From positions 64,001 to 128,000 of the forward strand of contig CAXXHA010000008.1 in the NCBI GenBank assembly GCA_963662265.2: a DNA stretch of 64,000 nt. Reading direction: 5' to 3'. The notes beneath the pieces were generated by a model. The model did no database searches. It was not told the DNA's origin and saw only the letters and a list, made by a program, of their open reading frames with translations. The DNA is from Spirochaetia bacterium. Lineage in GTDB: Bacteria; Spirochaetota; Spirochaetia; CADAEX01. The position numbers and the translations under genes are program-made. This document shows, in pieces, positions 1,099 to 17,523 of this stretch. Numbering within the stretch: position 1 is the first letter of the stretch; every line of letters starts with the position of its first letter.

Positions 1099-1175
1099 GA
1101 TTTATTCTTCAATATTTGAATATATAGTATAAATAATCATTCTTAAGTAATCCCTGATATATTATGTAAATAATT

Positions 1176-1517: not shown

Positions 1518-1562
1518 TTTTAGTCCTATATTTATTTTTTATTAATATTTTTAATCTTAAAA

Positions 1563-1784: not shown

Positions 1785-1918
1785 ATTTATAGTATTCCTA
1801 TTAAAAAATATTTTTTACAATTGATACTATCATATAGTATTTTTTAGATATTTATATCTTTATTTTGACAATCATATAAATAATATTCTTTGTTTTATCT
1901 AAAAAGCCCTGTAAGGGC

Positions 1919-2054
1919 GTGTAACGACGATTTGAGTAGCAAAATTGATCGGCGTCTTCGCCGAATTGTCACGATTCTGGAGTGAGCGATCAGCGAACGT
2001 CTTTAGCCAGAATCGTGACAATAAATTTTGACTACTCCAAATCTCTTGTTATGT
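1919..2054 (-). repeat. attC site (136 bp, divergent type)
   Basis: gtgtaac-gacgatttgagtag...ctactccaaatctctt-gttatgt with an internal stem ttgtcacgattctgg/ccagaatcgtgacaa. Confidence 0.88.
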
Positions 2055-2135
2055 GCCGTTTATTATATATAAATATTCCTACATCTCACTATATAATTCT
2101 TTTTCCCTTTTTTATTACTCCCAATTTATATTCGT

Positions 2136-2600
2136 TTAATGATTCAAAACTATATTTTCATAATAAGATAAAATCTCTTTTTTATTCCAATTTCTTTGTA
2201 TCCATATACTTAAATTCATATGTACTACATGCCATGTTGCTGATACTTTTGTATTTTCAACAACATTTGTCTCTCTCATATGATAGATGGCAATTTTAGA
2301 GGCCATTATTGACATATCAGTAAATGGAAATTCATTTATATTTTCATTTGAACAAGATAAAATACCTCCCATTAACCATTTATACATCCAATATGGAGTT
2401 AATTTATGAAATTCATCAATATCTATATTTGGTTCATATAATTCCCATTTTTTTTCAAAATCTGTTTCAGTTATGGAACTAGATACTTTTTGTGGATAAT
2501 TATCAATATATGATAATGCATTATAATATACGAAAATAGGTAATAAAATTATAAATAGTACTATTATAATAATAACTATACCTAAAATTTTCTTAATCAT
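2136..2600 (-). CDS. Hypothetical protein with N-terminal membrane anchor
   Basis: 154-aa ORF in cassette orientation with a hydrophobic N-terminus. Confidence 0.7.
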   Translation of the reverse strand: MIKKILGIVIIIIVLFIILLPIFVYYNALSYIDNYPQKVSSSITETDFEKKWELYEPNIDIDEFHKLTPYWMYKWLMGGILSCSNENINEFPFTDMSIMASKIAIYHMRETNVVENTKVSATWHVVHMNLSIWIQRNWNKKEILSYYENIVLNH

Positions 2601-3069
2601 TTAGATTACCATGTCTTATTAATCTATTAGTAATTAAAAGTGCAATCATCATAATATATCCAATTATCCATATTGAACTTACCAATTTTATCGTATTTTC
2701 ATTTGCTATTGTAAAATCACTAAATGGCCAAAATATTCTCAAATCTTTATGCATCAAGGAATCTAAAAATAGATGTGATAAAACACCTGCTTCTCCACCT
2801 AATATGTATGAAATTATTGTAACGTCCTTAATTCTTATTTTTTTCATTATTATACCAAATATAATTGATACTGGTAGCATAATTGCGGAACCACCAATTA
2901 TCGTATGGCTGAATCCATGCAATTCGAAGTTACAATCAAAAAAAACAACCAAAAATGGCTGTATATCAATTATTATATTTGATATTACACACATTGGAAT
3001 ATTTATATATTTCTTTAGAATCATCCCAAAGCTTGCATTTTAACCAAAATGTAAAGGTGTTATTGGCAT
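2593..3069 (-). pseudogene. Membrane metal-dependent hydrolase-like protein (YdjM/DUF4184-like) with an in-frame TAA at codon 10
   Basis: ATG 3069 gives MPITPLHFG*, in frame with ORF 2593-3024 (motifs IIDIQP, HGFSHT, SHLFLDSLMH). RBS AGAAGGG lies before 3069. Confidence 0.6.
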
Positions 3070-3139
3070 TCGACCCTTCTTACTTATGAATGTTTTATTA
3101 TATTTCATCTTCTAAAGATGTAGAATCACTTTTTCGTGC

Positions 3140-3250
3140 ACATAACGCCCAGTTGAGCTGCTTCGCAGTACCAATAAAACATACTTCTTTGCTGCTGAAA
3201 TAATCCTGAAAGAAAAAAGTCGCGAAGTCTGCTCCAACTGATTGTTATCT
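3140..3250 (-). repeat. attC site (111 bp)
   Basis: acataac-gcccagttgag...ctccaactgatt-gttatct; same type as 9740-9851. Confidence 0.92.
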
Positions 3251-3259
3251 TTTATATTT

Positions 3260-4315
3260 TTAAAATGGTATATCAATACATTCATCAAATATTTTTTCTA
3301 TTGTAAATTCATCTAATTTTCTCAAGGAATTATAAAGCTTTTGTTTTTTATCAGTTTCGATCTTTTCTAATTTATCCAGATCACCATTTACAACTATTGC
3401 ACGATTACTCTTATTATTAATTAAAAAAGTACAATTTCTATCTAAATTATTTCTACTGTCATGAATTCTAATATTATTTTCTAAATCAATTTCTGAAAAC
3501 ATTGTCATAAAATCATACCAGTTTTCATTTTCTTTTATACTTTGTTTAAATAACTCTATTGAAATTGCATAATTATCTATACTTAATTCTTTTTTAATTG
3601 TAATGAAGAATTGTTTTGCATTATTCTCATTATCTAAATCTAAAATTACTTTATCAGCATCGTCTTTATTAACAGATCTTAATATATTTTTCGTTAAATC
3701 TTCAATTTTTTCATTTATTGCAGAAATTGATGTTAATGCATTTTGAGTTTTTTCGTAAATTTGATATTGACTCCTTTGAACAAGAAAATCATAAAACATA
3801 CCAGACCATTGTTTTCTTAGATAGTTTTTTATTTCATTAGTATACTGAAAACTAAAATATCCATTATTTACTTTTGAAGATCTAACTAAATCTATAAATT
3901 TGAATATATTTATAGCAAAATCTTGTTTTTCAATTGATGGAAAAATAATTTGATTAGCATTTTCTTTATTTTTTATATATATCCGATGATCTTCATTTAC
4001 TTCGTTTTTGACAAATGTAAATACAGGAATATTCAATTCTTTAGCGGCAATATATTCAGCATTGACAATAGATTTATTAATATCTGCAATATAATTACCA
4101 CCAAATCGTCCTCCGATGATTAATATAAATAGCTGACAATTTTGTATTTCTTTTATACATGCATCATGAGTATGTAAATCAGGATGATAAAATACATCGC
4201 CTTTTTCACTAAGAATTGTATCAAATCCGAATGATTTAACAAATTCAATAAGATTATCTCTTACATCTGCTAAATCATAACATGTTGAACTTATAAAAAC
4301 TTTTGGGCAAGCCAT
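3260..4315 (-). CDS. DUF4062-domain protein
   Basis: N-terminal KVFISSTCYDL...C...I..C.LFILIIGGRFG...SIVNAEY signature; AGGAG RBS. Confidence 0.85.
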   Translation of the reverse strand: MACPKVFISSTCYDLADVRDNLIEFVKSFGFDTILSEKGDVFYHPDLHTHDACIKEIQNCQLFILIIGGRFGGNYIADINKSIVNAEYIAAKELNIPVFTFVKNEVNEDHRIYIKNKENANQIIFPSIEKQDFAINIFKFIDLVRSSKVNNGYFSFQYTNEIKNYLRKQWSGMFYDFLVQRSQYQIYEKTQNALTSISAINEKIEDLTKNILRSVNKDDADKVILDLDNENNAKQFFITIKKELSIDNYAISIELFKQSIKENENWYDFMTMFSEIDLENNIRIHDSRNNLDRNCTFLINNKSNRAIVVNGDLDKLEKIETDKKQKLYNSLRKLDEFTIEKIFDECIDIPF

Positions 4316-4449
4316 TTTATACTCCTAATATTTTTAATATTATACTTATTTTAGTTAGATATTAATATTTCTACAACTTTTATATTAATAATATTCATTT
4401 ATGTTAACATAAATACTTATCATTCAAAGTTATTGGACATTTTGAATAA

Positions 4450-4557
4450 AGATAACGCCAAGTTGAGCTGTTTGACTGATCCCGAAGGGTTGGCGCGTGT
4501 TCTTGCAAAAGCAAGAACCGTGACAAAAGTCAAATCTGCTCCAACTTTTTGTTATCC
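4450..4557 (-). repeat. attC site (108 bp)
   Basis: agataac-gccaagttgag...ctccaacttttt-gttatcc. Confidence 0.92.
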
Positions 4558-4665
4558 GTTTCATCATTCCATGATAATATCCATAGACTTAATTAATTTT
4601 ATAAAATAATTTTTTCAATAAACATAATGTTTTTCAGGGTGGAGCTTTTATTATTAATCCTTAAA

Positions 4666-5160
4666 TTACTGAATCTCCTTCCCCATCCAAACAACACTAA
4701 AATATCTTCCAAATTTTTTTCCAATATTTTTAAATATTCCATATTCTATAAATCCATTCTTTTTATGGAATTTTATACTATTATTATTTTCTGAACAAAT
4801 ACTTGCTAATATTTTTTTTATTCCCATTTTTTCAGCTTCAGTTTCAAGTTTATTTAAAGCTTGTTTTCCAATTCCTTTACCTGTATATTCATGATGTATA
4901 AAATACATAATTTCAGCAACTTCGGAAAAAGTAGATAAAGATATATGAGGTTTAAGCATACAAAATCCCAGAATTTTATTTTTATCATCTTTAATTGCAA
5001 ACCCAGGATATTTTTTAGTTACTTCAAGAAAATTTAGGAAATGATCTTTTTTAACAGTATTTTCTCTATATGCAGCTGTTGTTTCTTTTATATAATAATT
5101 AAATATTTCCATTACATCATTTTGATGTTCAATACTTAATTTTTCAAATTTACATTCCAT
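4666..5160 (-). CDS. GNAT N-acetyltransferase (phosphinothricin/YncA-like)
   Basis: IFNYYI..TTA, GKGIG acetyl-CoA motif, N..SIKFH.K.GF...G.KFGR. Confidence 0.9.
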   Translation of the reverse strand: MECKFEKLSIEHQNDVMEIFNYYIKETTAAYRENTVKKDHFLNFLEVTKKYPGFAIKDDKNKILGFCMLKPHISLSTFSEVAEIMYFIHHEYTGKGIGKQALNKLETEAEKMGIKKILASICSENNNSIKFHKKNGFIEYGIFKNIGKKFGRYFSVVWMGKEIQ

Positions 5161-5493
5161 ATTTACTTCTCCACAAATATTATTCTTTTCAATATTTATT
5201 ATTTTTGATTTATAAAATATTTTTCATTAATTCTTAAAGTTGATTTTTTATCATGATGCAAAGTATATAATTTGATAGGTGTAAAATTATAATAATCCTC
5301 TAATAATGACTTATTGGATTTATTAAATATCATATTTTTTCCCATATATCTTATATTATCATTTTTTTCAATATTTCTCTATTTTCTTAATCTCGAAGCT
5401 TGTTAAATATTCTTTTTTATTTCAAAGATCATGGATTTCATAATTTTTACGGTTTATTTTATCAGTTTTGCTATATTTACCGCCCGAAGGGCC

Positions 5494-5686
5494 GGATAAC
5501 ACCAAGTTGAGCTGCACCGGTGGTTCCTGAGCGAAGCGAAGGATTGGCATGTGTTTTTGCATTCATTTCTTTGCTTTGAAAGCAAATCTGGAAGTAGTAA
5601 ATAACTGCTGCAATTCTTTTATAATTCTACTTTTTTCCTGCAAAAACCATGACAAAACCGGGGTCTGCTCCAACTTTTTGTTATAT
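5494..5686 (-). repeat. attC site, long class (193 bp)
   Basis: ggataac-accaagttgag...cctgagcgaagcgaagg...ctccaacttttt-gttatat. Confidence 0.88.
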
Positions 5687-6115
5687 TCTAAATCCTCGCA
5701 AGGTCAAATGGCAAGTTCTTTTTCCCCATTTTCCAACCCGAAGATATTCTGCAGATCTTCAATATTTCTATTCAGAACTGCCAGGCGATCATTTCGGCAG
5801 GGCTCACCGCCCAGACTTTTGCACCCCAATCGTTCGGCGATCCTCGGAAATAATCAAGCCCTTAAATTCCTACCCTATATTGGACGGCATCGGCGCTGGC
5901 CATTTCGCCAAAAAGAAGATCAAGAAAACAAACGCTTTTCAAAATTGAAAGCAATATGTGCGAAATGCACCCGCCCAAAATTTCTTTCCCTAAATTGGCA
6001 GGCTCTGGAGGATGGCGGGCCTCAAAATGCTGCAAGCCATTTCCCAAAAAATCCTTAATTTTTATACGTCTACCAGTTTATTGGCAGTTTTTACGGTTTC
6101 CGCTAACTTGTGTGA
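5687..6115 (-). other. Gene-less cassette, family A (copy A1, 429 bp); candidate structured ncRNA/ssDNA
   Basis: Bounded by gttatat/atataac and GC-richer than the coding cassettes. Near-identical to 13047-13475, but no ORF is conserved between the copies. Confidence 0.8.
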
Positions 6116-6234
6116 ATATAACGGCCGCATGACCTGCAAACCTGGCCTGAGGTAATCCGAAGGATTGGCGCGGTTCTTGCCTGAGCAAGAATCCGTGCCA
6201 AAAAGGTTTGACTGGTCAATGCGATTTGTTAAAT
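6116..6234 (-). repeat. attC site (119 bp, divergent type)
   Basis: atataac-ggccgcatgacc...ggtcaatgcgattt-gttaaat; the internal ttcttgc/gcaagaa stem is shared with the 106-108 bp type. Confidence 0.88.
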
Positions 6235-6249
6235 GCCCATAGTTAGTAA

Positions 6250-6807
6250 TCAATTATATTTTGCTGTAACCAAACATCTTTTACCTGTAGAACCAGATGA
6301 TTTATCAATCTCAATAATAACTTCTCTTATTGATTCAGCAATCTTTTCTGAGACGTTAAGATTTTCTATAACAAAGCAATTATGAAACTCACATTTCTTA
6401 TCAAAGGATATGTGCTCCTCTCCATGGCTGCCTATACCATAACTATCGATCATAATGAACGATGGATGTTTTGACAAAAGCTGATCTAAGACTTCTTCTT
6501 TTAAAATAGTACATTTTGCTCCATACTCAGGTGTTCCATAACCATTTTTCTCCAAATTTCCTGTATAAAGGAGAACCGCCTTACCTGAAATATCAAGCGA
6601 TGATAATTCGTTGCTTAAAGGCATTTTATCCAAGCAGTTTACTGTTACAACCTCTAATTCAAAATGCGTTTTATCTGGTACTTTACTATAACAATCTATA
6701 TGAGTTCCTATATGCCCAAAAGCATTTACAGAATCAGACTGGTTCTTTGCCCAAATATATGAAGGATGTTCTGAGTTAATCTCTATGCTTAATTTTATTT
6801 CATTCAT
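6250..6807 (-). CDS. Cyclase/kynurenine formamidase-like metal hydrolase
   Basis: HIGTHID motif, LLYTG, ID..G, VIENL. Confidence 0.85.
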   Translation of the reverse strand: MNEIKLSIEINSEHPSYIWAKNQSDSVNAFGHIGTHIDCYSKVPDKTHFELEVVTVNCLDKMPLSNELSSLDISGKAVLLYTGNLEKNGYGTPEYGAKCTILKEEVLDQLLSKHPSFIMIDSYGIGSHGEEHISFDKKCEFHNCFVIENLNVSEKIAESIREVIIEIDKSSGSTGKRCLVTAKYN

Positions 6808-6933
6808 ACTGTATACCTCTCAACAAACCTTATATTAATTATCAAAATTGATAAATTCAATATTTAGTCAGTCGTTTCTAGATCTTTTTTAATTTTTCAA
6901 GATTTATCAAAGGCACATGAAAAATCAAGGTGC

Positions 6934-7127
6934 ATTTAACGCCAAGTTGAGCTGCTCCGGCGGTGCCTGAGCGAAGCGAAGGATTGGCATGTGTTTTTGC
7001 ATTTATACTTTGCTGTTAGAAAAATATGTAAAATAAGTGTTTTTTAGCTGCATATTTTTAATAATTCTACTTTTTTTCCTGCAAAAACCATGTCAAAGCC
7101 GGGGTCTGCTCCAACTTATTGTTACAT
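6934..7127 (-). repeat. attC site, long class (194 bp)
   Basis: atttaac-gccaagttgag...ctccaacttatt-gttacat. Confidence 0.88.
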
Positions 7128-7523
7128 TCTAAATCCTCGTAAGATCAATTAGCAAGTTCTTTTTATCCATTTTTTAACCCAAATATATCCTGCAGATCTT
7201 AATTATTTTGCATTTTTTATGCAGGGAGTATACCAAAACATAATCCTTGGATAACCGTCACAATATTTTTTCGGCTCGCTCTTTTTCGGCTGAAAAGCGC
7301 TTAGCTGTTTTTTCATTAAACAGTTATATCTTTTATTTTCGATTGTAAAAGGCTGTCCACACAAAACTATACTCTAACCTCTTTTTGAATCTGGATTGAA
7401 TCAAAACAAAATCGCTTTTCTGCCGAGAGGGTCTCAAGATGATGCATACAATCCTAAAAATATCTTTTTTATCACTTCTACCACAATATCGCCAGTTTTT
7501 ACTGTTTCCAATAACTTTTGTGT
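7128..7523 (-). other. Gene-less cassette, family A (diverged copy A2)
   Basis: Both ends align with A1 (tctaaatcctcg.aag.tcaa.t.gcaagttcttttt; cagtttttac.gtttcc..taactt.tgtg); no credible ORF. Confidence 0.72.
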
Positions 7524-7714
7524 ATGTAACGCCAAGTTGAGCTGCACCGGTATGCCTGAGCGAAGCGAAGGATTGGCATGTGTTTTTGCTTAATTTCTCT
7601 GCTTTAAAAACAGATCTGGAAGTAGTAAATAATTGCTGCAATTTTCGATAATTCTACTTTTTTTCCTGCAAAAAACATGACAAAACCGGGGTCTGCTCCA
7701 ACTTTTTGTTATAT
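7524..7714 (-). repeat. attC site, long class (191 bp)
   Basis: atgtaac-gccaagttgag...ctccaacttttt-gttatat. Confidence 0.88.
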
Positions 7715-8062
7715 TCTAAATTCTCTTTTGTTTTTTTAACAACGCCAAAATAGTTCAAGTATCCAGACTTTCACAATTATATCATAAACCTTTACGTGTT
7801 TCACTTTCAGAAACAAAAGGCCATTATTTTCTTCCTGCGCGGGCTCAGCGTGGGGAGTTGGCCCCATTTCCACGAATCGCGTGGGCAATTATCGCCAAAC
7901 TTCACCACCCTCTATCCCTGCCAGGGTCGTGGAAATGTCTACCCTAGATTGGACTGTCAGGGATCGCCAGGTAGCCAGGACACCAATAATCCGGTCTGAA
8001 CCAATTCCATCCAACTTTTCCCAAATTCAGCTACGTTTTACAGCTCCTCAAATTTTGGTGGA
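7715..8062 (-). other. Gene-less cassette, family B (copy B1)
   Basis: Colinear homolog of 9852-10201; 11-bp stem catttccacga/tcgtggaaatg. Confidence 0.78.
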
Positions 8063-8258
8063 ATATAACGCCCAGTTGAGCTGCTCCGGTGTGCCTGAAG
8101 CGAAGCTGAAGGATTGGCATGTCTTTTTGCATTTATATGTTTGCTTTTAAAACATCAACTTAAGGATTCAAATAACTGCTACAATTTTTTTTATAACTCT
8201 ACTTTTTCTATGCAAAAAGCATGACTAAACCGGGGTCTGCTCCAACTGATTGTTATAT
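8063..8258 (-). repeat. attC site, long class (196 bp)
   Basis: atataac-gcccagttgag...ctccaactgatt-gttatat. Confidence 0.88.
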
Positions 8259-8625
8259 TCTAAACCCTCGCAAGGTCAATTAGCAAGGCAAGATTTATCT
8301 CTTAACGACCCGCCTATACGCAGTTGCTCTTTCAATAATTCGAAACAAAACAGCCAGGAGATCATTTCCTGACAGGCCATACCTCCCCAATTTTTTTGAC
8401 CCTAACTCGAGGGGCATATCTTGGAAATGATCAAGCCCAAGATTTTACTATTCATGAGTGGGCAGGCATTGTCAGGCCCATTTCACACCCCAGATTTTCT
8501 TTCCCTAATGGTCGGCTGCGCAGGATGAAGGGGCTTAAGACGCTGCAAACAATCCCCAAAAAAATCTTTTTCAAACTGTTTACCCGTTTATTGAGTGTTT
8601 TAATGGTTTCCACTAACTTTTGTGA
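8259..8625 (-). other. Gene-less cassette, family A (copy A3, lacks one internal module)
   Basis: Shares cctcgcaaggtcaa, gatcatttc/gaaatgatcaagccc, ttctttccctaa and taactt.tgtgaatataac with A1. Confidence 0.75.
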
Positions 8626-8731
8626 ATATAACGCCCAGTTGAGCTGTTTGTCTGTCCCAAAGGGTTGGCGCGTGTTCTTGCTCTGCAAGAACCGTGACAA
8701 AAGACAAATCTGCTCCAACTTTTTGTTATCT
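8626..8731 (-). repeat. attC site (106 bp)
   Basis: atataac-gcccagttgag...ctccaacttttt-gttatct. Confidence 0.92.
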
Positions 8732-8738
8732 ATTTTTT

Positions 8739-9620
8739 TCAAAAATAAGATATTATTCTTCTTTCTGATGTTATTAATTCAAATATTCTATCATTTTTTC
8801 CCTTATGCATAGTTTTTTTAATAATCCAATTCTTTTTATTGTCAAATGTATATTTATATTTTATTTCATCAGTAACTTTATTATCTTTATATGTTATCTT
8901 AAATCTTATATTTCCATTCTTATATTCTTTTTTACTTTTTAATTCATCATTTATATATTCTTCAGTTGATTTAATTCTTCCTTTTCCATCATAATTATTG
9001 ATAACTACCCAACTACTAACAGCTTCATTAGAAATAATATTAATTTGTCGGATTAAGTCTTTTCCTTCATATTCATTTTCTACTATTATTTTTGTTTTAC
9101 TTTCTGGACTTAAAGTCTTTTGCTTTTTTCTTATAATGAGTTCACCATCGTATTCATAATTTATTAAAGTAATATGCTCTTCTTCCCCATTTATTGTTTC
9201 TTGTTTTATTAAATTTCCAAATTCATCGTATTCAAATGTAGATTCTGAAACCGGGATATCATCTTTTTCAAATATTGTCTTACTATATACGATTTGATCA
9301 TTTTTTTTAGTATTTACAACTATATACTTTCCAAATATTATATCATAACATGATATTTCAATAATATCATTGTTGTACTTACGTTCTTCAGAATAAACAA
9401 TTTCATCATTCAGACTAAATCGTTTATATAAGATTCTTTCCCCATTATTATTTTTTTCTTCAATTTCTCTTTTATACTCATTCCCTAAAATATCACTTTC
9501 AAATATTTCGGTACTCTGTATAATGAAATCGTTTTTTTTATCTGTATTTTCTAGTACACACCCACAAACTATAATTTTCATTATTAGTAGTAGTACTTTT
9601 ACTTCATGTTTTACTTTCAT
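8739..9620 (-). CDS. Hypothetical exported protein with YD/RHS-like beta-hairpin repeats
   Basis: Repeated FEYDEFGNLI, YEYDGELI, NYDGKGRI and YTFDNKKNWI segments; hydrophobic N-terminus with Cys. Confidence 0.7.
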   Translation of the reverse strand: MKVKHEVKVLLLIMKIIVCGCVLENTDKKNDFIIQSTEIFESDILGNEYKREIEEKNNNGERILYKRFSLNDEIVYSEERKYNNDIIEISCYDIIFGKYIVVNTKKNDQIVYSKTIFEKDDIPVSESTFEYDEFGNLIKQETINGEEEHITLINYEYDGELIIRKKQKTLSPESKTKIIVENEYEGKDLIRQINIISNEAVSSWVVINNYDGKGRIKSTEEYINDELKSKKEYKNGNIRFKITYKDNKVTDEIKYKYTFDNKKNWIIKKTMHKGKNDRIFELITSERRIISYF

Positions 9621-9739
9621 TAATTGATCCTACATAATAATTCTCTAATTTTTATTTATTGAAATCGTTTTTAAATCCTTATTTTTATTTAAAATTATAT
9701 CATATTTTCCTTTTATTCTCTAATTTTCCACGAAGTGGT

Positions 9740-9851
9740 AGATAACGCCAAGTTGAGCAGCTTAGCAATCACTGTAAAACATACTTCTTTGCTGCTTGAA
9801 ATAATCCTGAAAGTAAAAAGTCGCGAAGTCTGTTCAAACTTTTTGTTATAT
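9740..9851 (-). repeat. attC site (112 bp)
   Basis: agataac-gccaagttgag...ttcaaacttttt-gttatat. Confidence 0.88.
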
Positions 9852-10201
9852 TCGAAATTCTTTTTCAGTTTTCAAAACAACACCAAAATAGATCAAGGAT
9901 CAAGATCTTCCCAATTATATCATAATCCTTCACGCGGCTCACTTCCCGAATCAAAAGGCCAGTATTTTCTTCCTGCGTGGGCCCAGCGTGGGCCGAGTTG
10001 GCTCCATTTCCACGAATCGCGTGGGCAATTATTTCCCTACTTCACCGCCCTCAATCCCTGCCAGGCCGTGGAAATGTCTACCCAAGATTGGACTGTCAGG
10101 GATCGCCAGGCAGCCAGGACATCATTAATCCGGTCTGAACCAACATCATCCACTTTTTCCAGAATTCAGCTACGTTTTACAGCTCCCCAAATTTTGGTGG
10201 A
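9852..10201 (-). other. Gene-less cassette, family B (copy B2)
   Basis: Homolog of 7715-8062; bounded by gttatat/atataac. Confidence 0.78.
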
Positions 10202-10277
10202 ATATAACGCCTAATTGAGTTGCGCCCTCGCAGGAGCGCAGCGACGAGAAGGCGTCAACTCCAATTTTTTGTTACAC
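10202..10277 (-). repeat. attC site (76 bp, short type)
   Basis: atataac-gcctaattgagttg...caactccaatttttt-gttacac. Confidence 0.9.
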
Positions 10278-10475
10278 GAATTATTCTTCCATATATAGAA
10301 TTTCAATCACACGTGTTTCTCTTAAATGTAAGATTTTTCTTCTTTCTATAAGTTGATATTACTCTACCTGAGGTGCCATGTAAACTTTTTTAATAATATA
10401 CAGCTGTTTTATACCATTTTCAGCATATTTACAGCTGCAGTTAATAATCCTTTAACATAGATAATTTTGAGATTT

Positions 10476-11576
10476 TTAAGCTGTTTCAAGACTGCATTCA
10501 TGCTCTGGAGGGGACTTATTTATTCTTAAATATTCTTTGATAATTTCCGGAATATCCTCATAACTGAACTGATACAGGACTTTCATTTCTGTATTACATT
10601 TCGGGCATTCTTCTTCATACTCTTCTGCTTTTTTTACTTCGAAGCCGAACTTTTCTTTCAGTTCAATTAGTTCTTCTTTATGCCGGTTTGAATAAAGTCC
10701 ATAGTTTCTCACAAGGACTATTCCTTTGGGGGGAATGTGATTAAAAAATCTTTCCATGAATACTTCATATCGTAAGCGGGTTATTTTCTTACCTGTCGGC
10801 TGATATATTATTTCTCTGTTTAACCTATCCCATTCTATTTCTTTTTCGGGATTTACAACTGTTCCGCAAGCTGATTTTGATAAATAGTTGACTATTGATT
10901 CTCCACTATTCTGATGAAAAGTAACATTCCAGCCCCACTCGTCTTTTGTAAAATTATCTATCATTCTATATCTTTTCTTTGCATCATTCGGCAGCTTTTT
11001 TAGAAATCCGCAGCTGAAACTTTTCTTTACTTCTTCCAGTATTTCGCTATAATTCATACTGAAATCATCTTCCCACTCGTGCTCATCATTCATTCCTCCT
11101 GGGGTAATAATACAATGCACATGCGGATGATAACTTAATCCTTCACCTACCGATTGAAAGACCATTGTCATTCCATATTGCAGTCCTTTTTTCTTTTGAT
11201 ATTTCTTAAAGGATTCATTTATAGAGTTGAACAAAGAACTTATGAATGCATGCTTATGATACATCCAGATCATTGTATACATATCAGGGGGCACTATTAC
11301 CAGATGATAATGGCCCATTTCAAGCAGCCGACATTTTATATTTTCCTTCCATTGCAGCTGGTTTTTCTTTCCGCAAACAGGACATCCTCTTTTATTGCAG
11401 GGGTTGTATAATACCATTTTTTCCTTACAATTCGGGCATTCAACAATTCGCCCTCCCATCTTTATTGTGCGGCAGTTTTTATATTTTTCGATTATGTTTC
11501 TGATATCCGACATTTCCGGTGATAATATTTCACCGGTTAATTCATCCAGTAATTCAACGAATTTTACATTTTCCAT
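10476..11576 (-). CDS. IS91/ISCR-like rolling-circle (HUH) transposase with N-terminal Zn-binding domain, carried as a cassette
   Basis: CPNC...CNKRGCPVC Zn domain, HYHLV, HPHVH HUH motif, NYLSK, VRNYGLYSN, C-terminal CPKC and SPP. Confidence 0.88.
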   Translation of the reverse strand: MENVKFVELLDELTGEILSPEMSDIRNIIEKYKNCRTIKMGGRIVECPNCKEKMVLYNPCNKRGCPVCGKKNQLQWKENIKCRLLEMGHYHLVIVPPDMYTMIWMYHKHAFISSLFNSINESFKKYQKKKGLQYGMTMVFQSVGEGLSYHPHVHCIITPGGMNDEHEWEDDFSMNYSEILEEVKKSFSCGFLKKLPNDAKKRYRMIDNFTKDEWGWNVTFHQNSGESIVNYLSKSACGTVVNPEKEIEWDRLNREIIYQPTGKKITRLRYEVFMERFFNHIPPKGIVLVRNYGLYSNRHKEELIELKEKFGFEVKKAEEYEEECPKCNTEMKVLYQFSYEDIPEIIKEYLRINKSPPEHECSLETA

Positions 11577-11650
11577 GCAGCTCTATACTGCATTTTTATT
11601 ATTTCTGCTTCAAAATTATGTAATTTTCTTCAAAAAAGCCCTGAAAGGGC

Positions 11651-11756
11651 GTGTAACGCCCAGTTGAGCTGTTTGACTGTCCCGGAGGGTTGGCGTGTAA
11701 ATTGCGTAAGCAATTTGCATGACAAAAGGCAAATCTGCTCAAACTGATTGTTACAT
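11651..11756 (-). repeat. attC site (106 bp)
   Basis: gtgtaac-gcccagttgag...ctcaaactgatt-gttacat. Confidence 0.9.
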
Positions 11757-11760
11757 GGAT

Positions 11761-12735
11761 TTATTCTCCTATTTCTATATCACTTTTTAATATTTCAATA
11801 TTTTCAATATTTTTATATCTTAAAAATGATTTAAGAGAATGTTCTGCTTTTTTTGAGTTTAATGAGTTACCATAAATTATTTGGTTTATTGGTAGAGGCA
11901 TTTTTGTCGCTTCTTTCTTATTTTCTTTATAAAATGCTAATTTTTGATATGGAATCAGTAAATTATTTTTTTCTCTATAATGTATTTCATTGTTCATTTT
12001 TTTGGGAAATGAAATAATTCTCCATTCCTTTTCTTCTTCGAATTCTTTCTTCTTTAATAATGGTAATATATATACTATTAAGTCTTTTAAATATTCAATA
12101 ATTATCCGAAATTTTAAATTTTCATCAGAAGTAATATTATTTTCAGGAAAATCATTATCTAATTCAATAACTGTATTTTTAAAAATTGTTCTTACAAAGT
12201 CTTTCTGACTTTTATAGTCATAAAGTACTGGTTTTGGTAATAAACATGGGTAAAATTTTGAATCATCTTTTATATCTTCCCAATAAGGTCCAATTATCAA
12301 TTCCTCTGTATTATTAATACTTATACAATATCCTTTTCCATTTTGACCATATTCTCTCCATTGTCCTAACAAATTATTATGTTCACAAAACGATGTTATA
12401 TATATTTCATTATCTAGAATATTATTATCTGTATATTCTTCTTCCATTATAATTAAAAACATGTTTATTGCTGTTTTTACTGTGCTATTTTCATCGAATT
12501 CATCTTCCAATATATCTTTTATAATTTTTAAACCATATTTAATTTCATTAGGATCATTTAAATAACTATAATGAGTAGCCCATAAAGTATTTTCTTCTAA
12601 AATTCCTTTTAATCCATATGCACTTGTATAATGATATAACTTAGTAATTTTATTATTTTTAAAATATTTATTTAATTCATCAGTTATATTATCTAAAAAA
12701 AATAAATATTCTTTTTTATTCTTTTCATTTTCCAC
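11761..12735 (-). CDS. DUF2971-domain protein
   Basis: LYHYTS..GL.GIL....LWAT...LNDPNE, SFC....L.QWREYG..G.G, K...F.EEKEWR. Confidence 0.85.
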   Translation of the reverse strand: MENEKNKKEYLFFLDNITDELNKYFKNNKITKLYHYTSAYGLKGILEENTLWATHYSYLNDPNEIKYGLKIIKDILEDEFDENSTVKTAINMFLIIMEEEYTDNNILDNEIYITSFCEHNNLLGQWREYGQNGKGYCISINNTEELIIGPYWEDIKDDSKFYPCLLPKPVLYDYKSQKDFVRTIFKNTVIELDNDFPENNITSDENLKFRIIIEYLKDLIVYILPLLKKKEFEEEKEWRIISFPKKMNNEIHYREKNNLLIPYQKLAFYKENKKEATKMPLPINQIIYGNSLNSKKAEHSLKSFLRYKNIENIEILKSDIEIGE

Positions 12736-12854
12736 ACTTTACTCCAATATATAGTTCCATTTTTTTAATGATCTTTTATTAGTTCATAAATATATTAAAA
12801 TATTACTTTATCATTATTAGCATAACTTTTACCAACTAGTTTTAAACATATTGC

Positions 12855-13046
12855 ATGTAACACCAAGTTGAGCTGCTCCGGTGGTTCCTGAGCGAAGCGA
12901 AGGATTGGCATGTGTTTTTGCATTCTTTTCTTTGCTGTAAAACAAATCTGGAAGTAGTAAATAACTGCTACAATTCTTTTATAATTCTACTTTTTTTCTG
13001 CAAAAACCATGACAAAACCGGGGTCTGCTCCAACTTTTTGTTATAT
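12855..13046 (-). repeat. attC site, long class (192 bp)
   Basis: atgtaac-accaagttgag...ctccaacttttt-gttatat; near-identical to 5494-5686. Confidence 0.88.
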
Positions 13047-13475
13047 TCTAAATCCTCGCAAGGTCAAATGGCAAGTTCTTTTTCCCCATTTTCCAACCCG
13101 AAGATAAACTGCAGATCTTCAATATTTCTATTCAGAACTGCCAGGCGATCATTTCGGCAGGGCTCACCGCCCAGACTTTTGCACCCAAATCGTTCGGCGA
13201 TCCTCGGAAATGATCAAGCCCGTAAATTCCTACCCTATATTGGACGGCATCGGCGCTGGCCATTTCGCCAAAAAGAAGATCAATAATCCAATTGCTTTTC
13301 GAAAATGAAGCAATATGTGCGAAATGCCCCCGCCCAAAATTTCTTTCCCTAAATTGGCAGGCTCTGGAGGATGGCGGGCCTCAATATGCTGCAAGCCATT
13401 TCCCAAAAAATCCTTAATTATTTAAGCGGTTACCAGTTTATTGGCAGTTTTTACGGTTTCCGCTAACTTGTGTGA
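13047..13475 (-). other. Gene-less cassette, family A (copy A1'), first cassette next to attI
   Basis: Near-duplicate of 5687-6115, including its attC. Confidence 0.8.
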
Positions 13476-13500
13476 ATATAACATTACATATTCAATACTT
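13476..13500 (-). other. attI recombination site (crossover G/TT at 13482/13481 on the minus strand)
   Basis: The last NNNTAAC core (atataac 13476-13482) is followed by non-attC sequence just upstream of intI. The outer boundary is approximate. Confidence 0.75.
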
Positions 13501-13641
13501 TTGTATAATATTTTACCCTATAAAGCCGTTTTTTAAAACTAAGTAAAAATAAACATAATCTGAATCAGAAATACTTAAAAACCTGTTTTAAAATATAAAA
13601 CTGTTGTTTTCCCCTCATAGAAAGAAAACAGGAGGTTTGGT

Positions 13642-14862
13642 ATGACATTAGAGGATTTTTTGATCAACAAAAGCAAAGTAAAAGAACAGCATGTTTTTTA
13701 CTACCTGAAATGGATTTCTGAATATCAGAGTTTCAAATTACATAATAGTGATTCAGATTTAAATGATTTTCTGTTAAATTTGAGCAAAAGATTTGAGTCC
13801 TGGCAGGTTAACCAGGCACAGAAAGCTGTAAACTTATACAAATATTACAACAATACTTATGCAGAAATTAAGCCTGAAATAATTCATCCACCCGATGACT
13901 GGGATAAAGCGATAACTAAAGCAAAAGAGCTATGCAGGTTTCAGTATAAATCGTTAAGCACTGAAAAATCCTATATTTACTGGATAAAATCATTTCAGAA
14001 ATACCTTTCTGGTAAGATTCCGGTTGATGTCAACGAATCAGATGTAAAAAATTTCCTGACATACCTTGCTGTTCAGAAAGGTATCGCCGATTCTACTCAG
14101 AAACAGGCTTTTATTGCACTGCTTTATCTGTTTAGAAATGTTTTAAACAAGGAAATATCAGACCTCAACAATGTTATTCGCTCATCGCAATATAAAAAAC
14201 TCCCCGTAGTTCTCTCAAAAGATGAAGTTGCCCTGGTTATCAGTAAAATGAAAGGAATATACAGAATAATGGCAGAAATTATCTACGGAGGCGGCTTGCG
14301 ACTTTCAGAATGCCTGTCACTGAGGATCAGGGATCTGGATTTTCAGAGGCAGTGTATAGTTGTGCATTCAGGAAAAGGAAACAAGGACAGACTTACTCTC
14401 CTTCCCGAATCTATTGTTCCTAAGTTGCAGAATCACCTGATCATTGTAAGAAAGAAGCATGATAAAGACAGGAGAGAAAAAGTTGAAGGTGTTCCACTTC
14501 CTGATGCGCTGGAAAAAAAGTACAAAAATGCCTGCCTTGAATGGGGCTGGTACTGGGTCTTTCCCTCTGATAAATTATCTTTCGACCCGAGAGAAAAAAT
14601 TATCAGAAGATATCATATATATCCGACAACGCTGCAGAAATCCTTTCATGATGCTGTTGTTCAGTCTGAAATAGCAAAAAATGCATCTATTCACACATTA
14701 CGCCATAGTTTTGCAACCCATTTAATAGAAAACGGTTATGATGTCAGGACAGTACAGGAGCTTCTGGGACATTCAGACATAAGAACAACAATGATTTATA
14801 CACACATTGCGCAAAAGAATAAACTGGGGGTTGTCAGTCCTTTCGATGATCTGAAATTGTAA
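13642..14862 (+). CDS. intI: Integron integrase (tyrosine recombinase, long N-terminus)
   Basis: GLRLSE, GKGNKDR, HTLRHSFATH, LGH and TTMIYTH, plus the integron-specific insert LPDALEKKY...WYWVFPS....DPR....RRYH; AGGAGG RBS. Confidence 0.97.
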   Translation: MTLEDFLINKSKVKEQHVFYYLKWISEYQSFKLHNSDSDLNDFLLNLSKRFESWQVNQAQKAVNLYKYYNNTYAEIKPEIIHPPDDWDKAITKAKELCRFQYKSLSTEKSYIYWIKSFQKYLSGKIPVDVNESDVKNFLTYLAVQKGIADSTQKQAFIALLYLFRNVLNKEISDLNNVIRSSQYKKLPVVLSKDEVALVISKMKGIYRIMAEIIYGGGLRLSECLSLRIRDLDFQRQCIVVHSGKGNKDRLTLLPESIVPKLQNHLIIVRKKHDKDRREKVEGVPLPDALEKKYKNACLEWGWYWVFPSDKLSFDPREKIIRRYHIYPTTLQKSFHDAVVQSEIAKNASIHTLRHSFATHLIENGYDVRTVQELLGHSDIRTTMIYTHIAQKNKLGVVSPFDDLKL

Positions 14863-14970
14863 GCCAGAAATTGAACAAAAAACAATTGAAAACTATTGTT
14901 CCATCATTTTAAGTGAAGATAAACATAAAACTGTTGTTTTGTAAGATATAATATCTACAGTGATATTTTC

Positions 14971-17523
14971 TCATTTTTTCATAAATTTCCTTACATCACC
15001 GGCACTTACAGCTTTAAACAAAGTTGATACACATTTCTCATTGCATTCTTTTGAAGAAATATTTCTAACAGCTTTTTTCACCAGCGGGATCTGAGAGGGA
15101 TTCATACTCAGGCTGTAGATACCTATTCCGATTAATAAAGTTGCGGCATCAGGATCTCCTCCCAGTTCTCCGCAGAGACTTACATCTATTCCCGCATTTT
15201 CTGCAGACAGTACTGTTTTCCTGACAGCACGTATGACAGCTGGATCATATGGATCTGAATAAGAAGCCAGGTTTTTGTTTCCTCTTTCAGCGGCAAGCAT
15301 GTACTGTGTAAGATCATTTGTTCCAATACTGAAAAAATCGCAGATACCTGCAAGTTCGGATGACATAAATACAGATGAGGGTGTTTCAATCATAATTCCT
15401 GTTTCAACCGGCCAGATATGTTTTATCCCTTCAGTCAGGAGGTCTTTATGTACTTCATTTATCAGATTATAGGCTTTTTCACATTCATCATATTGTGAAA
15501 TCATAGGTATCATTATTTTCAAATCGTTATCCAGACCTGCTCGGAGGATTGCCCTGATATGGGTTTTTAAAAGTTTTCTGTAACTTTCATAGATTCTTAC
15601 TCCCCTCATCCCAAGGAAAGGGTTGTCTTCATAAGGAAGTTTCATGTAGGGAATTACTTTATCCCCCCCTATGTCAAGAGTCCTGATTGTGACTGGTCTT
15701 CCTTCCATTATTTTAAAGACTGTAGAGAAAAAGCTGAACTGCTCATCTTCTGTCGGAGGTGAGTTTTTTTCAAGAAAAAGAAATTCTGTTCTTAAGACTC
15801 CAACTCCATCTGCTCCGTTTTTTACCGCTGCAGCTGCTTCTGAAACAGAGGCAATATTTGCATATATATTAATTCTCTTCCCGTCTTTTGTATAAGAAGG
15901 CTCGCGTTCTTCTCGAATAAGTTTTTCTCTTTCTGATATATAAGCCTCTTTTTTCCTTTTCAGTGTATCCAGTGTTTCATGATCAGGATTTACAAAAACA
16001 GATTCAGAATCCGCATCGAAGCAGATATAATCTTCTTCTGTTATTTCACTTAACTTTGAATATCCTCCCAACGCAGGGATTCCCAGTGATTTAATGAGTA
16101 TTGCAGCATGTGACGTAGCATCACTGTCAGACAGAATTATACCTTCTGTCTTTTCCGGATCCAGCTGCAGAATCTGTGACGGCGAAAGCCATTTTGCAGC
16201 AATGACTGCTCCAGAAGGTATTTCATGATATTCCTGCTGTCTGTTTCCTTTGAGAAATGAATAAACACGTGATGCGACATCTCTGACATCAGCAGCTCTG
16301 GCTTTCAGATATTCATCTTCAAGTCTTTCATACCTCTCAATAACATCATTTGCAGAAATACTCCAGGCAGATGATGCATTATAATTTTCATCACGTATTT
16401 TTCTTATACTTTCATCTTTCAAGTCAGGATCTTCAAGAAGAAAAAGATGTGTTTCTATGATCTGCATTTTATCTTCTTCAATATTATTTTTTCTTACAGT
16501 TTTTTTAATTTCAGCTTTTACACTATCCAGTGCAGAGTGAAGCTTTTCAACTTCTTCCTCGCTGTTATCCGCTTTTTCCGCTTTTTTCTCAAGGCTGATA
16601 CTGCCGGGAAACCAGACTTTTCCCAGTGCAATGCCTGAAGAAAGCTTTAAAAGACCTTTTCCGGTTCCTTTTAAAATTTGTTCTTCACGGCTTATACAGG
16701 TGTTATTGTCCGGAGTTATACTCTGAGCCTCACCAGTTCCTTCCCTGATTATTCCCATCTTCTCACCGAAATTTTCCCCGACAAGTAAGTCAAGCTCTCT
16801 GAAAAAAGCATTTGAAGATATTTCATCGCTAAATGCTTCAACAAGTATTTCGTCATTTTCTAGCACTTCAAGAGAAGAAAGACGGTTAAAACTACGCCCA
16901 TTTACAGGTCCCCTGTTTTTTGTCAGATTTGTAACTTTTACATTACTGCATCCTGAATCTGATACTGCTTTTATGAATTTCGCTGCAGGTCTTGCATGAA
17001 GTCCGTTTTCATTAACAATAGTATATTTTTTTGCAAATCCGGTTTCTTCAGATTTAAATATTGTTTTATCACCTGAAGACACAGTAGATTTACTATCTGC
17101 AGTTAATTCTGATTCCCCCCCCAGGTATTCAATTTTCTGATATAAGCTTTCTTCTGCTTCATTTATAGAATTTTTGATAGTAGCCCCGGCACCGCACTGT
17201 ACAGCTGCGCTGATAACCCCTTCGGCAAGAGGCGCCGATGAAATATGAATATTTGATGCTTTTTCAGGATCCATGAAATCGACTGCTGTTTCAGAACTTA
17301 TGAGTGCACTTCCCATATCTGCAAATATGACTACACCTTCTTCAGAATAAACAGATTCAACGGCATCCATTATATCTGTGGCATCTGTTCCATATTCATC
17401 ATCTTTACCTTCAAATCCCCCCGCATATGCAACAGGAATATTTTTCCCGCCCATTTCAATTGCAAGTTCAGCCAGGCTCTTTGCAAGGATTCTGCTGTGA
17501 GAGACAATAACAATACCGAACAT
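14971..17523 (-). CDS. dhaM: PTS-dependent dihydroxyacetone kinase phosphotransferase (DhaM EIIA + HPr + full enzyme I)
   Basis: GIVIVSHS (EIIA), GLHARPA (HPr), TSHAAIL, GVLRTEFLF and FFSIGTNDLTQY (EI). Confidence 0.9.
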   Translation of the reverse strand: MFGIVIVSHSRILAKSLAELAIEMGGKNIPVAYAGGFEGKDDEYGTDATDIMDAVESVYSEEGVVIFADMGSALISSETAVDFMDPEKASNIHISSAPLAEGVISAAVQCGAGATIKNSINEAEESLYQKIEYLGGESELTADSKSTVSSGDKTIFKSEETGFAKKYTIVNENGLHARPAAKFIKAVSDSGCSNVKVTNLTKNRGPVNGRSFNRLSSLEVLENDEILVEAFSDEISSNAFFRELDLLVGENFGEKMGIIREGTGEAQSITPDNNTCISREEQILKGTGKGLLKLSSGIALGKVWFPGSISLEKKAEKADNSEEEVEKLHSALDSVKAEIKKTVRKNNIEEDKMQIIETHLFLLEDPDLKDESIRKIRDENYNASSAWSISANDVIERYERLEDEYLKARAADVRDVASRVYSFLKGNRQQEYHEIPSGAVIAAKWLSPSQILQLDPEKTEGIILSDSDATSHAAILIKSLGIPALGGYSKLSEITEEDYICFDADSESVFVNPDHETLDTLKRKKEAYISEREKLIREEREPSYTKDGKRINIYANIASVSEAAAAVKNGADGVGVLRTEFLFLEKNSPPTEDEQFSFFSTVFKIMEGRPVTIRTLDIGGDKVIPYMKLPYEDNPFLGMRGVRIYESYRKLLKTHIRAILRAGLDNDLKIMIPMISQYDECEKAYNLINEVHKDLLTEGIKHIWPVETGIMIETPSSVFMSSELAGICDFFSIGTNDLTQYMLAAERGNKNLASYSDPYDPAVIRAVRKTVLSAENAGIDVSLCGELGGDPDAATLLIGIGIYSLSMNPSQIPLVKKAVRNISSKECNEKCVSTLFKAVSAGDVRKFMKK

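Follow-up and report, generated by a model that had tools for sequence, protein, structure and literature searches.

ORF-less cassettes account for a considerable part of chromosomal integron arrays. To our knowledge, the only roles so far given to them are those of promoters (Vibrio, Treponema) and, in one case, of an sRNA (Xanthomonas). Promoter activity of such cassettes was described for the sedentary chromosomal integrons of Vibrionaceae (Blanco et al. 2024, PMC11014356). The available sections of that article depict cassettes like those at the present locus in being ORF-less, in belonging to a chromosomal integron array and in being interspersed among gene cassettes. The promoters there were measured, whereas the candidate promoter here, on the sense strand at the 3' end of the cassettes, is recognised from consensus only. 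The same sections do not contain the words 'hairpin', 'secondary structure', 'sRNA' or 'non-coding RNA', and they do not describe what sets the present cassettes apart, namely their grouping into two families that have a hairpin unit in common, and an unusually long attC in five of six cases.

Oral Treponema integrons, too, have ORF-less gene cassettes with demonstrated promoter activity (Tansirichaiya et al. 2019, PMC6557892). As at our locus, one ORF-less cassette stands in first position beside attI. Unlike here, no hairpin modules are described in the available part of PMC6557892, a comparison made by description and not by sequence. The article also cites sRNA-Xcc1, a trans-acting sRNA of Xanthomonas encoded by an integron cassette (Chen 2011). 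As far as that citation goes, sRNA-Xcc1 is a non-coding RNA on an ORF-less integron cassette, while RNA from the present cassettes is only putative and a search with Rfam 15 gave no match to any family at gathering score in the window, by which we mean the whole 64-kb stretch of DNA analysed.

Positions 1-13480 of the window are the cassette array of a chromosomal integron, and the cassettes are read on the minus strand (Table 1). The array has 14 attC sites. The window shows 14 complete cassettes, six of them non-coding; these six form two related ORF-less families, A (four copies) and B (two copies). They are gene-less integron cassettes by their attC or attI borders beside intI and by their content, in which no credible protein-coding gene was found; in our reading of the attC sites, every cassette has an R'' box complementary to the start of that cassette. 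Five of the six have a GC content of 0.42-0.47, whereas the cassette genes mostly range from 0.16 to 0.33. On the minus strand the order is A1', two genes, B2, one gene, A3-B1-A2, one gene, A1 and then genes. This order, with gene-less cassettes ahead of genes, fits regulatory cassettes upstream of genes.

Table 1. Positions in the window of the integron, the gene-less cassettes and their features
Feature	Position	Strand	Remarks
intI, integron integrase gene	13642-14862	+	TIGR02249, 382.6 bits (cut-off 265); Pfam Phage_integrase and SAM_4
attI	about 13483-13641		beside intI
Cassette A1', gene-less	13046-13482	-	first beside attI; modules 1 and 2; bounded by attI and long attC 12855-13046; no Pfam match
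A1' module 1	13147-13215	-	9-bp closing stem GATCATTTC/GAAATGATC; interior 51 nt
A1' module 2	13259-13328	-	8-bp closing stem CATTTCGC/GCGAAATG; interior AT-rich
Cassette A1, gene-less	5686-6122	-	module 1 at 5787-5855, module 2 at 5901-5967
Cassette A2, gene-less	7127-7530	-	ends conserved as in other A copies; middle unrelated, AT-rich
Cassette A3, gene-less	8258-8632	-	module 1 at 8360-8432 (10-bp stem); orphan module 2 arm at 8479-8484
Cassette B1, gene-less	7714-8069	-	module at 7865-7937, 11-bp stem CATTTCCACGA/TCGTGGAAATG
Cassette B2, gene-less	9851-10210	-	module at 10005-10076, 10-bp stem; short attC 9740-9851
CCAAT-N-TAGGG linker box	13233-13243; also 13347-13357, 5873-5883, 5988-5998, 7942-7952, 10081-10091	-	
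Long attC (185-190 nt)	12855-13046; also 5494-5686, 6934-7127, 7524-7714, 8063-8258	-	
Promoter-like TTGCCA-18-TAGAAT, cassette 3' end	13045-13074; homologs 5685-5714, 8257-8286, 7126-7155, 7713-7742	-	consensus match only
IS91-family Y2 (HUH) transposase gene, ordinary cassette	10476-11576	-	NF033538, 190.7 bits; Pfam Y2_Tnp and Zn_Tnp_IS91

An earlier note on this DNA had drawn attention to CATTTC/GAAATG pairs in the gene-less cassettes, and all twelve of its coordinate and sequence pairs were exact on re-check. The pairs are the closing stems of hairpin-forming inverted repeats of 63-73 nt (modules). Their 6-mer cores are 51 to 61 nt apart, and the modules sit 100-280 nt inside the cassettes, away from the borders. 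Each module is a sub-unit of a tandem unit of ~114 nt, which consists of the hairpin and a CCAAT-N-TAGGG linker and is present in about two to three copies in family A and in one copy in family B. A direct repeat with this 114-nt period (13207-13248 and 13321-13362, 71% identity) includes the linker box. When the whole window was searched for the box with at most one mismatch, all six matches lay inside gene-less cassettes, on the minus strand. Loss of module 2 had been given as the reason for the shortness of A3, and the alignment bears this out: A3 has 62 nt less (375 versus 437 nt with our own cassette boundaries; 367 versus 429 bp in the earlier note) and has kept a single arm, with CATTTC at 8479.

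The motif pair exceeds the shuffled background. The pattern CATTTC-N45-70-GAAATG has eight matches in the 64 kb, compared with a mean of 0.47 in 100 shuffles, none of which reached eight. Six of these matches are inside gene-less cassettes; those at 37221 and 47758 have only the 6-mer in common with them, and both lie inside ORFs. We also scored each cassette for a perfect stem with a loop of 30-90 nt against 1000 dinucleotide shuffles. Stems of at least 8 bp were found in 443 of 1000 shuffles, and are thus so common that module 2 by itself is not significant. A 9-bp stem was reached in 134 of 1000, a 10-bp stem in 29 (A3) or 22 (B2) of 1000, and the 11-bp stem of B1 in none of 1000.

Repeated extragenic palindromes (REP/BIME) are another system of this general kind, and REP elements are handled by an HUH enzyme. 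The modules are similar to them in being repeated palindromic units in alternating orientation with conserved linkers between. In contrast to REP/BIME, they occur in integron cassettes only, and the ~50 kb of the window that lie outside the array hold just the two core-only matches inside ORFs; on this count we rejected REP/BIME-like dispersed palindromes within the 64-kb window. Moreover, the HUH gene here is of the IS91-type Y2 class, not a REP-associated Y1.

The modules had been described as attC-sized but with another core, and this is what we found. Modules (63-73 nt) and the short attC sites here (66-110 nt) are alike in size, and both are imperfect hairpins with a conserved foot and a variable top. 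Unlike attC sites, the modules are internal to the cassettes and do not mark a cassette boundary, and their arms, GATCATTTC(C)/(G)GAAATGATC, CATTTCGC/GCGAAATG and CATTTCCACGA/TCGTGGAAATG, do not contain the AAC/GTT core (expected: RYYYAAC...GTTRRRY). We trained an attC covariance model (R1) on eight short attC sites of the window and searched positions 1-16000. It scored its own eight training sites at 61-115 bits, gave weaker, partial matches over the five long attCs and picked up a newly noticed site at 1919-2054 (31 bits). No module was matched at E≤10 with filters off, and the modules were rejected as attC sites. By our reading of the alignment, the long attC sites look like the short type with an AT-rich apical insert of roughly 80 nt. 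All five stand behind gene-less cassettes, and five of the six gene-less cassettes have one.

The HUH protein encoded in the array had been put forward as a second enzyme that might use the modules as its site. This proposal found no support. The IS91-type gene is an ordinary cassette with attC sites on both sides (10203-10277 and 11651-11756), and only one of the six gene-less cassettes, B2, adjoins it. Its flanks contain no CATTTC/GAAATG pair; four copies of CATTTC (10584-11511) lie inside the coding sequence.

We then considered how the copies are related. A1 and A1' differ in 30 of 630 aligned columns, attC included (about 95% identical), and B1 and B2 are 86% identical. The module copies are therefore not independent and represent about three lineages: A module 1, A module 2 and B. 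A1' and A3 are 57% identical overall and share 24 of 53 positions in the module interior; their longest identical run (13206-13221, 16 nt) covers one arm and the adjoining flank. Arms and flanks are among the best-conserved parts of the cassettes. Between the three lineages the interiors are unrelated, with identities at random level (16/51 and 18/61), and the shared 6-mer is extended in each lineage by differing complementary bases (GAT/ATC, GC/GC and CACGA/TCGTG). The conserved closing stem with a variable interior is, as the earlier note held, a real repeated unit common to families A and B. Since the sequence of the stem is conserved rather than covarying, it is as compatible with a sequence-specific site as with a pure RNA helix.

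In all 14 folds of isolated modules, over both strands, the closing stem was formed. With DNA parameters, hairpins also appeared in each of 10 folds, whichever the strand (z from -1.3 to -3.9). Full-length cassettes folded weakly: z was -2.10 (minus) and -1.12 (plus) in A1', -0.56 (minus) and -2.20 (plus) in B1 and, on the minus strand, -0.45 in A2 and -0.56 in A3. The stem of A1' module 1 was also part of the full-length MFE structure on both strands; in B1 (either strand) and in A3 the module stem was unused. The consensus fold of A module 1 was better than that of column shuffles (z=-4.5 on the minus strand, z=-3.2 on the plus strand). Four of its pairs were changed on both sides, a compensatory count that, with few sequences, was not above the column-shuffle null (reached by 27 of 200 shuffles on the minus strand and 11 of 200 on the plus strand). 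Taken together, thermodynamics and covariation give the modules modest support.

The minus-strand RNA was the more stable in all seven modules, with 21 G.U pairs compared with six on the plus strand. Both single-sided arm changes point the same way: the right arm of A1 module 1 (GAAATAATC) has a C.A mismatch on the plus strand and a G.U pair on the minus strand, and pair 11 of the B2 module is A.C on plus and G.U on minus. Family B as a whole, however, folded better on the plus strand (z=-2.99, versus 0.04 on the minus strand), which makes the strand assignment tentative. The RNA domain suggested by the earlier note is thus plausible as such, but its assignment leans on weak strand asymmetries and no Rfam family matches it. 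At E≤5, the only Rfam match in 5400-13700 was a plant miRNA model inside an attC (E=0.17). We rejected intrinsic terminators as well: the scan flagged 8373-8353 (minus) and 10009-10025 (plus), neither of which is a module closing stem, and no module is followed by a U-run.

Protein searches with the B ORF gave one match, P0001, and none among shorter proteins. P0001, the sole outside homolog, is a spurious 148-aa ORF over a B-type cassette on another contig, represented by its protein sequence only. Its residues H-F-H-K and A-L-W-K-C imply an A-T in place of G-C at stem pair 10, which leaves the stem intact, a compensatory change deduced from amino acids and not from DNA. By our own reading of the alignment, P0001 does not preserve the predicted interior helices of B. 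The nearer hairpin formerly proposed as a mutually exclusive fold of family B fared no better, two of its five pairs being lost in P0001.

These findings point to a structural role of the modules, probably in RNA, over that of a second recombination site. Our preferred reading is that the ORF-less cassettes are regulatory and that the modules form RNA hairpins in their cassette-sense transcript. Quite possibly, the stems have been kept by selection for pairing in a single-stranded molecule, most likely cassette-sense RNA (minus strand), with the hairpins as structural elements; we hold this tentatively, on an evidence base of six paralogs, about three independent lineages and one protein-only homolog. 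The data show the anatomy of the units, the conservation of their arms, the lack of coding capacity and the distinctness of the modules from attC sites and Rfam families. Selection for pairing we infer from a single compensatory change that a protein translation implies; the strand, RNA as the molecule and any regulatory role are presumptive. Read-through, starting at Pc or in cassettes further upstream, would produce the sense transcript, in which the hairpins might influence RNA stability or processing or serve as a stem for protein binding. The module-bearing cassettes stand ahead of gene cassettes, and an outward-facing promoter at the 3' end may be a further feature of theirs. Should the hairpins prove functional, structured non-coding modules would join the cargo that integrons exchange, and the motif would offer a defined target for tests.

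The stems could also be functionless. The cassettes would then be selfish non-coding passengers copied by IntI, their modules would stem from tandem duplication of a palindromic unit, and the conserved arms would reflect young copies or homogenisation by gene conversion. The tandem unit, with its 114-nt period and 71% identity, is consistent with this, and so is the near identity of A1 and A1', whose differences are clustered in a patch inside module 2, which suggests recombination between copies. Stems of 8-9 bp are common in shuffles, covariation counts are not significant, and very large protein sets yielded next to no homologs (none for the A ORF, one for the B ORF). Nevertheless, the arms are perfect over 8-11 bp while the interiors are at random-level identity, A3 holds its 10-bp stem at so low an overall identity to A1', P0001 implies a compensated pair, and no shuffle reproduced the stem of B1. 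We consider lack of function somewhat unlikely. Were it true, the locus would be an example of selfish gene-less cassettes multiplying in an array, which matters for the interpretation of array content.

Integron recombination operates on folded single strands, and the modules might act at the level of DNA, as ssDNA hairpins, cruciforms or two inverted half-sites. Recognition by IntI, by an accessory factor, by the IS91-type Y2 transposase or by a regulator would then affect cassette mobility or local transcription. It is the sequence of the stem, not pairing alone, that is conserved across both families, as is typical of protein recognition sites, and the hairpins do form with DNA parameters. 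Furthermore, the cassettes have multiplied in the array (four A, two B), a near copy of A1 occupies the attI-proximal position, and an HUH gene lies within the array. Against this stand the missing match of any module to the attC model of the window, the single gene-less cassette next to the IS91 cassette with its pair-free flanks, and the G.U versus A.C asymmetry, which favours one strand. The core distance, in addition, varies by 10 nt (51-61 nt), arguing against two rigidly phased half-sites. On balance, a DNA-level role seems unlikely.

A bolder proposal, which we regard as quite doubtful, is that the cassettes belong to an undescribed class of mobile, modular, structured cassettes. Their sequence-specific hairpins (RNA or ssDNA) would be bound by a dedicated protein and, with an enlarged attC of their own, would control the expression, processing or mobility of neighbouring cassettes.

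Plain promoter cassettes, as in Vibrio and Treponema, are improbable in our view. Here, only the 3'-end TTGnnA-18-TAGAAT would be functional, and the modules would be filler or operator sites. A site at the homologous position was found in five of the six gene-less cassettes; its hexamers are common to A and B, the 18-nt spacer sequence is not conserved, and the gene-less cassettes stand ahead of gene cassettes. There are precedents, as far as the available sections of PMC11014356 and PMC6557892 describe them. However, the -10-like TAGAAT overlaps the attC R'' box GAATATAAC, which is obliged to pair with the cassette start GTTATATTC, and B2 and P0001 have TCGAAT instead. Promoter-like sites are in total no commoner than in shuffles (34 found, 34.8 expected), and in the available sections of PMC11014356 the measured promoters did not match in-silico prediction. 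The conservation of the arms would also be left unexplained.

That the cassettes encode missed small proteins, for which long plus-strand frames such as 5549-6058 (169 aa) and 9735-10214 (159 aa) might speak, is scarcely credible: no reading frame stays open throughout the copies, the indels that separate them have lengths other than multiples of three, Pfam gave no match, the A ORF has no homolog (none confirmed from 33 candidates in a set of 5.8 billion clusters, and none among 1.84 billion representatives), and the sole match of the B ORF, P0001, hits B1 and B2 in shifting, different frames, stops included.

Cassette A2 has no CATTTC module, which counts against the reading that we favour. 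It has an imperfect inverted repeat of its own, of 30 nt, at 7286-7315 and 7397-7426.

An earlier note had read CATTTC/GAAATG stem modules in the gene-less (ORF-less) cassettes of a chromosomal integron, and every coordinate and arm sequence that it listed was correct in the window sequence. The modules are inverted repeats of 63-73 nt; two cassettes of family A, A1 and A1', carry modules 1 and 2. With GAAATAATC as its right arm, module 1 of A1 has a mismatch (C.A) on the + strand where the - strand forms G.U. A third member, A3, is 62 nt shorter than A1 and A1' and has lost the interior and other arm of module 2 as described, with one arm kept (CATTTC at 8479). The pattern CATTTC-N45-70-GAAATG had eight matches in the window, where 0.47 were expected (0/100 shuffles reached eight), so the motif pairs are indeed above the shuffled background. 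Six of the eight matches are modules; the remaining two (37221 and 47758) lie inside ORFs and have only the 6-mer in common. For the stems themselves, we counted perfect stems with a loop of 30-90 nt in 1000 dinucleotide shuffles per cassette. Stems of at least 8 bp appeared in 443 of the 1000 shuffles, 9-bp stems in 134, 10-bp stems in 22-29 and the 11-bp stem of B1, a family B cassette, in none. Single stems thus carry uneven weight. The copies are also non-independent: A1 and A1' differ in 30 of 630 columns, attC included, and identity between B1 and B2 is 86%. The case is therefore built on about three module lineages.

The cassette array occupies window positions 1-13480, and its features are collected in the table below. 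Every cassette gene that matched a family (11761-12735, 10476-11576, 8739-9620, 6250-6807, 4666-5160 and 3260-4315) lies on the - strand, which identifies this as the cassette-sense strand. Read along it, A1' comes first, followed by two gene cassettes, B2, a single gene cassette, A3-B1-A2, another single gene cassette, A1 and then further gene cassettes. We placed 13 attC sites through their conserved ends; a 14th (1919-2054), missed in the end-motif search, was found by a covariance model (31.2 bits, E=1.4e-5). In every cassette read, the R'' box was the complement of the bases with which that cassette begins, as it should be in real cassettes. The IS91 gene also lies within an apparently regular cassette (10278-11650), with attC on both sides and an R'' box GTGTAAC complementary to the start GTTACAC. 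A rolling-circle transposase gene seems unusual as integron cargo. GC content was 0.42-0.47 in five gene-less cassettes and 0.33 in A2; it was mostly 0.16-0.33 in the cassette genes versus about 0.30-0.43 in chromosomal DNA to the right of intI. The chromosome beside the array (14000-64000) carries ordinary housekeeping genes (dhaKLM/PTS enzyme I, trpE/GD/CF, pyrC, coaBC, hom, glmS and eno).

Features of the integron array in window coordinates
Feature	Position	Strand	Remarks
Integron integrase gene intI	13642-14862	+	TIGR02249, 382.6 bits (cut-off 265); Pfam Phage_integrase and SAM_4
attI	about 13483-13641
Gene-less cassette A1'	13046-13482		First position, adjoins attI
Gene-less cassette B2	9851-10210
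Gene-less cassette A3	8258-8632
Gene-less cassette B1	7714-8069
Gene-less cassette A2	7127-7530
Gene-less cassette A1	5686-6122
IS91-family Y2 (HUH) transposase gene	10476-11576	-	NF033538, 190.7 bits
Long attC sites (185-190 nt)	5494-5686, 6934-7127, 7524-7714, 8063-8258, 12855-13046
Promoter-like TTGnnA-18-TAGAAT	13045-13074, 5685-5714, 8257-8286, 7126-7155, 7713-7742	-	Consensus match

The modules belong to a larger repeating unit. Within A1', the segment 13207-13248 recurs at 13321-13362, 71% identical and with a period of 114 nt, and each module is preceded on the - strand by a CCAAT-N-TAGGG box. With up to one mismatch, this box had six matches in the window, all in gene-less cassettes, a count not above chance (25/100 shuffles reached six). 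Family A contains two full units and a decayed third, and family B one unit. Since CATTTC and GAAATG alternate along A1' (13150, 13207, 13261, 13321 and 13397), the arms could also pair across the linker. Pairing of GAAATG with the next CATTTC involved the 6-bp core only, versus 8-11 bp in the pairing of the earlier note, and we kept the latter. All four A copies, A2 included, have common ends of about 55 nt (5') and about 60 nt (3'); family B has in common with them its terminal bases on both sides and some of the 5' block. The middle of A2 is unrelated to the other A copies and is without a CATTTC module. At the corresponding place, A2 has an imperfect inverted repeat of its own (30 nt, 7286-7315 / 7397-7426; 73% complementary, 81 nt between the arms), and the full-length fold of the - strand shows it as a long helix.

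We tentatively read the modules as base-paired RNA elements of regulatory ORF-less cassettes, which might act on RNA stability or processing, or as a protein-binding stem. Several observations favour selection on the stems. A1' and A3 are 57% identical, and their longest run of identity covers one arm and its flank (16 nt, 13206-13221); in the module interior, 24 of 53 positions were identical. Among the interiors of A module 1, A module 2 and B, identity was at random level (16/51 and 18/61). The shared 6-mer is extended in each module by the module's own complementary bases. The only homolog found outside the window, a 148-aa predicted protein (P0001) from a public collection, aligned with B2 in frame +3 (67/91 identical) and then in frame +1 (43/49), and with B1 in other frames, with stops. 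P0001 is evidently a spurious frame, read across a cassette of type B and its attC of the B2 type. Its residues H-F-H-K and A-L-W-K-C place an A (Lys codon) at the tenth base of the left arm, which is G in B1 and B2, and a T (second base of a Leu codon) at the partner position, which is C in B1 and B2. Read from amino acids rather than DNA, this would be a double change, from G-C to A-T, by which the stem is preserved.

The consensus fold of A module 1 (A1, A1' and A3) had 35 pairs on the - strand and 22 on the + strand, with four changed on both sides in each case. Its energy was well below that of column-shuffled alignments (z=-4.5 on the - strand, -3.2 on the + strand); the counts of compensatory pairs were not above the null, being reached by 27/200 and 11/200 column shuffles, which speaks against selection, as do the results on whole cassettes and on the B interior. 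Full-length folds were unimpressive (z -0.45 to -2.2), and the module stems were used in the full-length minimum-energy structure of A1', not in those of B1 or A3. In our reading, the predicted interior helices of B are not kept in P0001. Nor is the nearer CCACG/CGTGG hairpin conserved, which had been proposed as a mutually exclusive fold of the family B left arm: two of its five pairs are broken in P0001 by the same residues that indicate the double change. This hairpin is present in the full-length + strand minimum-energy structure of B1, and its B2 counterpart was flagged as terminator-like. An intrinsic terminator reading of the modules was ruled out by a terminator scan. A neutral by-product in selfish cassettes would fit the chance-level compensatory counts, against which stand the arms kept amid changed interiors, and we regard this reading as rather doubtful.

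Isolated modules closed with the stem on both strands, in 14/14 folds with RNA parameters and 10/10 with DNA parameters. The - strand RNA was more stable in seven of seven modules, with 21 G.U pairs versus six on the + strand. Where only one arm has changed, in A1 module 1 and at B2 pair 11, the - strand has G.U and the + strand A.C in both cases, an outcome with a one-in-four chance without constraint. The opposite holds for family B as a whole, whose + strand gave the better fold (z=-2.99 vs 0.04 for the - strand). On balance we weakly favour RNA of the cassette-sense strand as the molecule concerned. A protein site at the DNA level would likewise be served by stems that close with DNA parameters, and we consider it unlikely. 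The HUH protein, suggested earlier as the enzyme for such a site, appears a poor candidate: its gene is the cargo of an ordinary cassette that has B2 as its only gene-less neighbour, and no module-like pair is present in the flanks of the gene.

Another possibility is that the gene-less cassettes are promoters only. A promoter-like element sits at the homologous 3' position in five of the six, directly before attC, with hexamers common to A and B and a spacer whose sequence is not conserved. The element and its placement recall promoter cassettes described for Vibrio (PMC11014356) and Treponema (PMC6557892). Sequence support for a promoter appears thin, because shuffled sequence has as many such sites (34.8 vs 34 observed), the attC R'' box and the -10-like hexamer overlap, B2 and P0001 read TCGAAT, and in-silico predictions disagreed with measured promoters in the Vibrio study. 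We consider a role as promoters alone improbable.

Hidden genes are scarcely credible: no frame was open in all copies, indels were not in threes, Pfam was empty for eight candidate ORFs, none of 33 candidates scored for the A ORF 5549-6058, and this ORF had no match among 1.84 billion protein representatives. The B ORF 9735-10214 matched one protein, P0001, and none among shorter proteins. Nor are the modules attC sites: a model built from eight short sites (the array's ~100-nt type) scored its own eight and 1919-2054, with weaker partial matches over the long attCs; no module was matched at E<=10 with filters off. The modules matched no known RNA family in Rfam. A junction pattern common to the gene-less cassettes found 6/6 in the window and 11 loci, from unrelated genomes, in genome contigs. 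By blastn these loci matched the six cassettes over 11-37 nt only (best E 0.013) and are probably chance matches. A1' with its attC had no match in a plasmid collection (blastn, distant mode).

Roles already known for ORF-less integron cassettes are that of promoter and, in a single example, that of sRNA (sRNA-Xcc1, as cited in PMC6557892). A narrow literature search on gene-less or non-coding integron cassettes gave no description of such hairpin modules. New here are two related families from a common hairpin unit with conserved stem sequence, multiplied within one array, and the coupling of these cassettes to an enlarged attC in five of six copies. Long attCs occur only behind gene-less cassettes; B2 has a short one. 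The long type has the appearance of a short attC enlarged at its apex by some 80 nt of AT-rich sequence. Since family B is paired with both the long (B1) and the short type (B2 and P0001), recombination has joined cassette bodies to different attC types. A1' closely duplicates A1, which lies nine cassettes further down. Its place at attI would fit fairly recent IntI-mediated copying and re-insertion there. Eight of the differences between the two are clustered within 25 nt inside module 2 (5924-5948).

Canonical attC sites carry the extra G on the bottom strand. In the L box of the array's attC sites (e.g. 8626-8731), the unpaired extra base, read by eye, is G on the - strand 5' arm, that is, C on the + strand 3' arm. 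If the canonical rule holds, extra-base identity and gene orientation disagree in this array.
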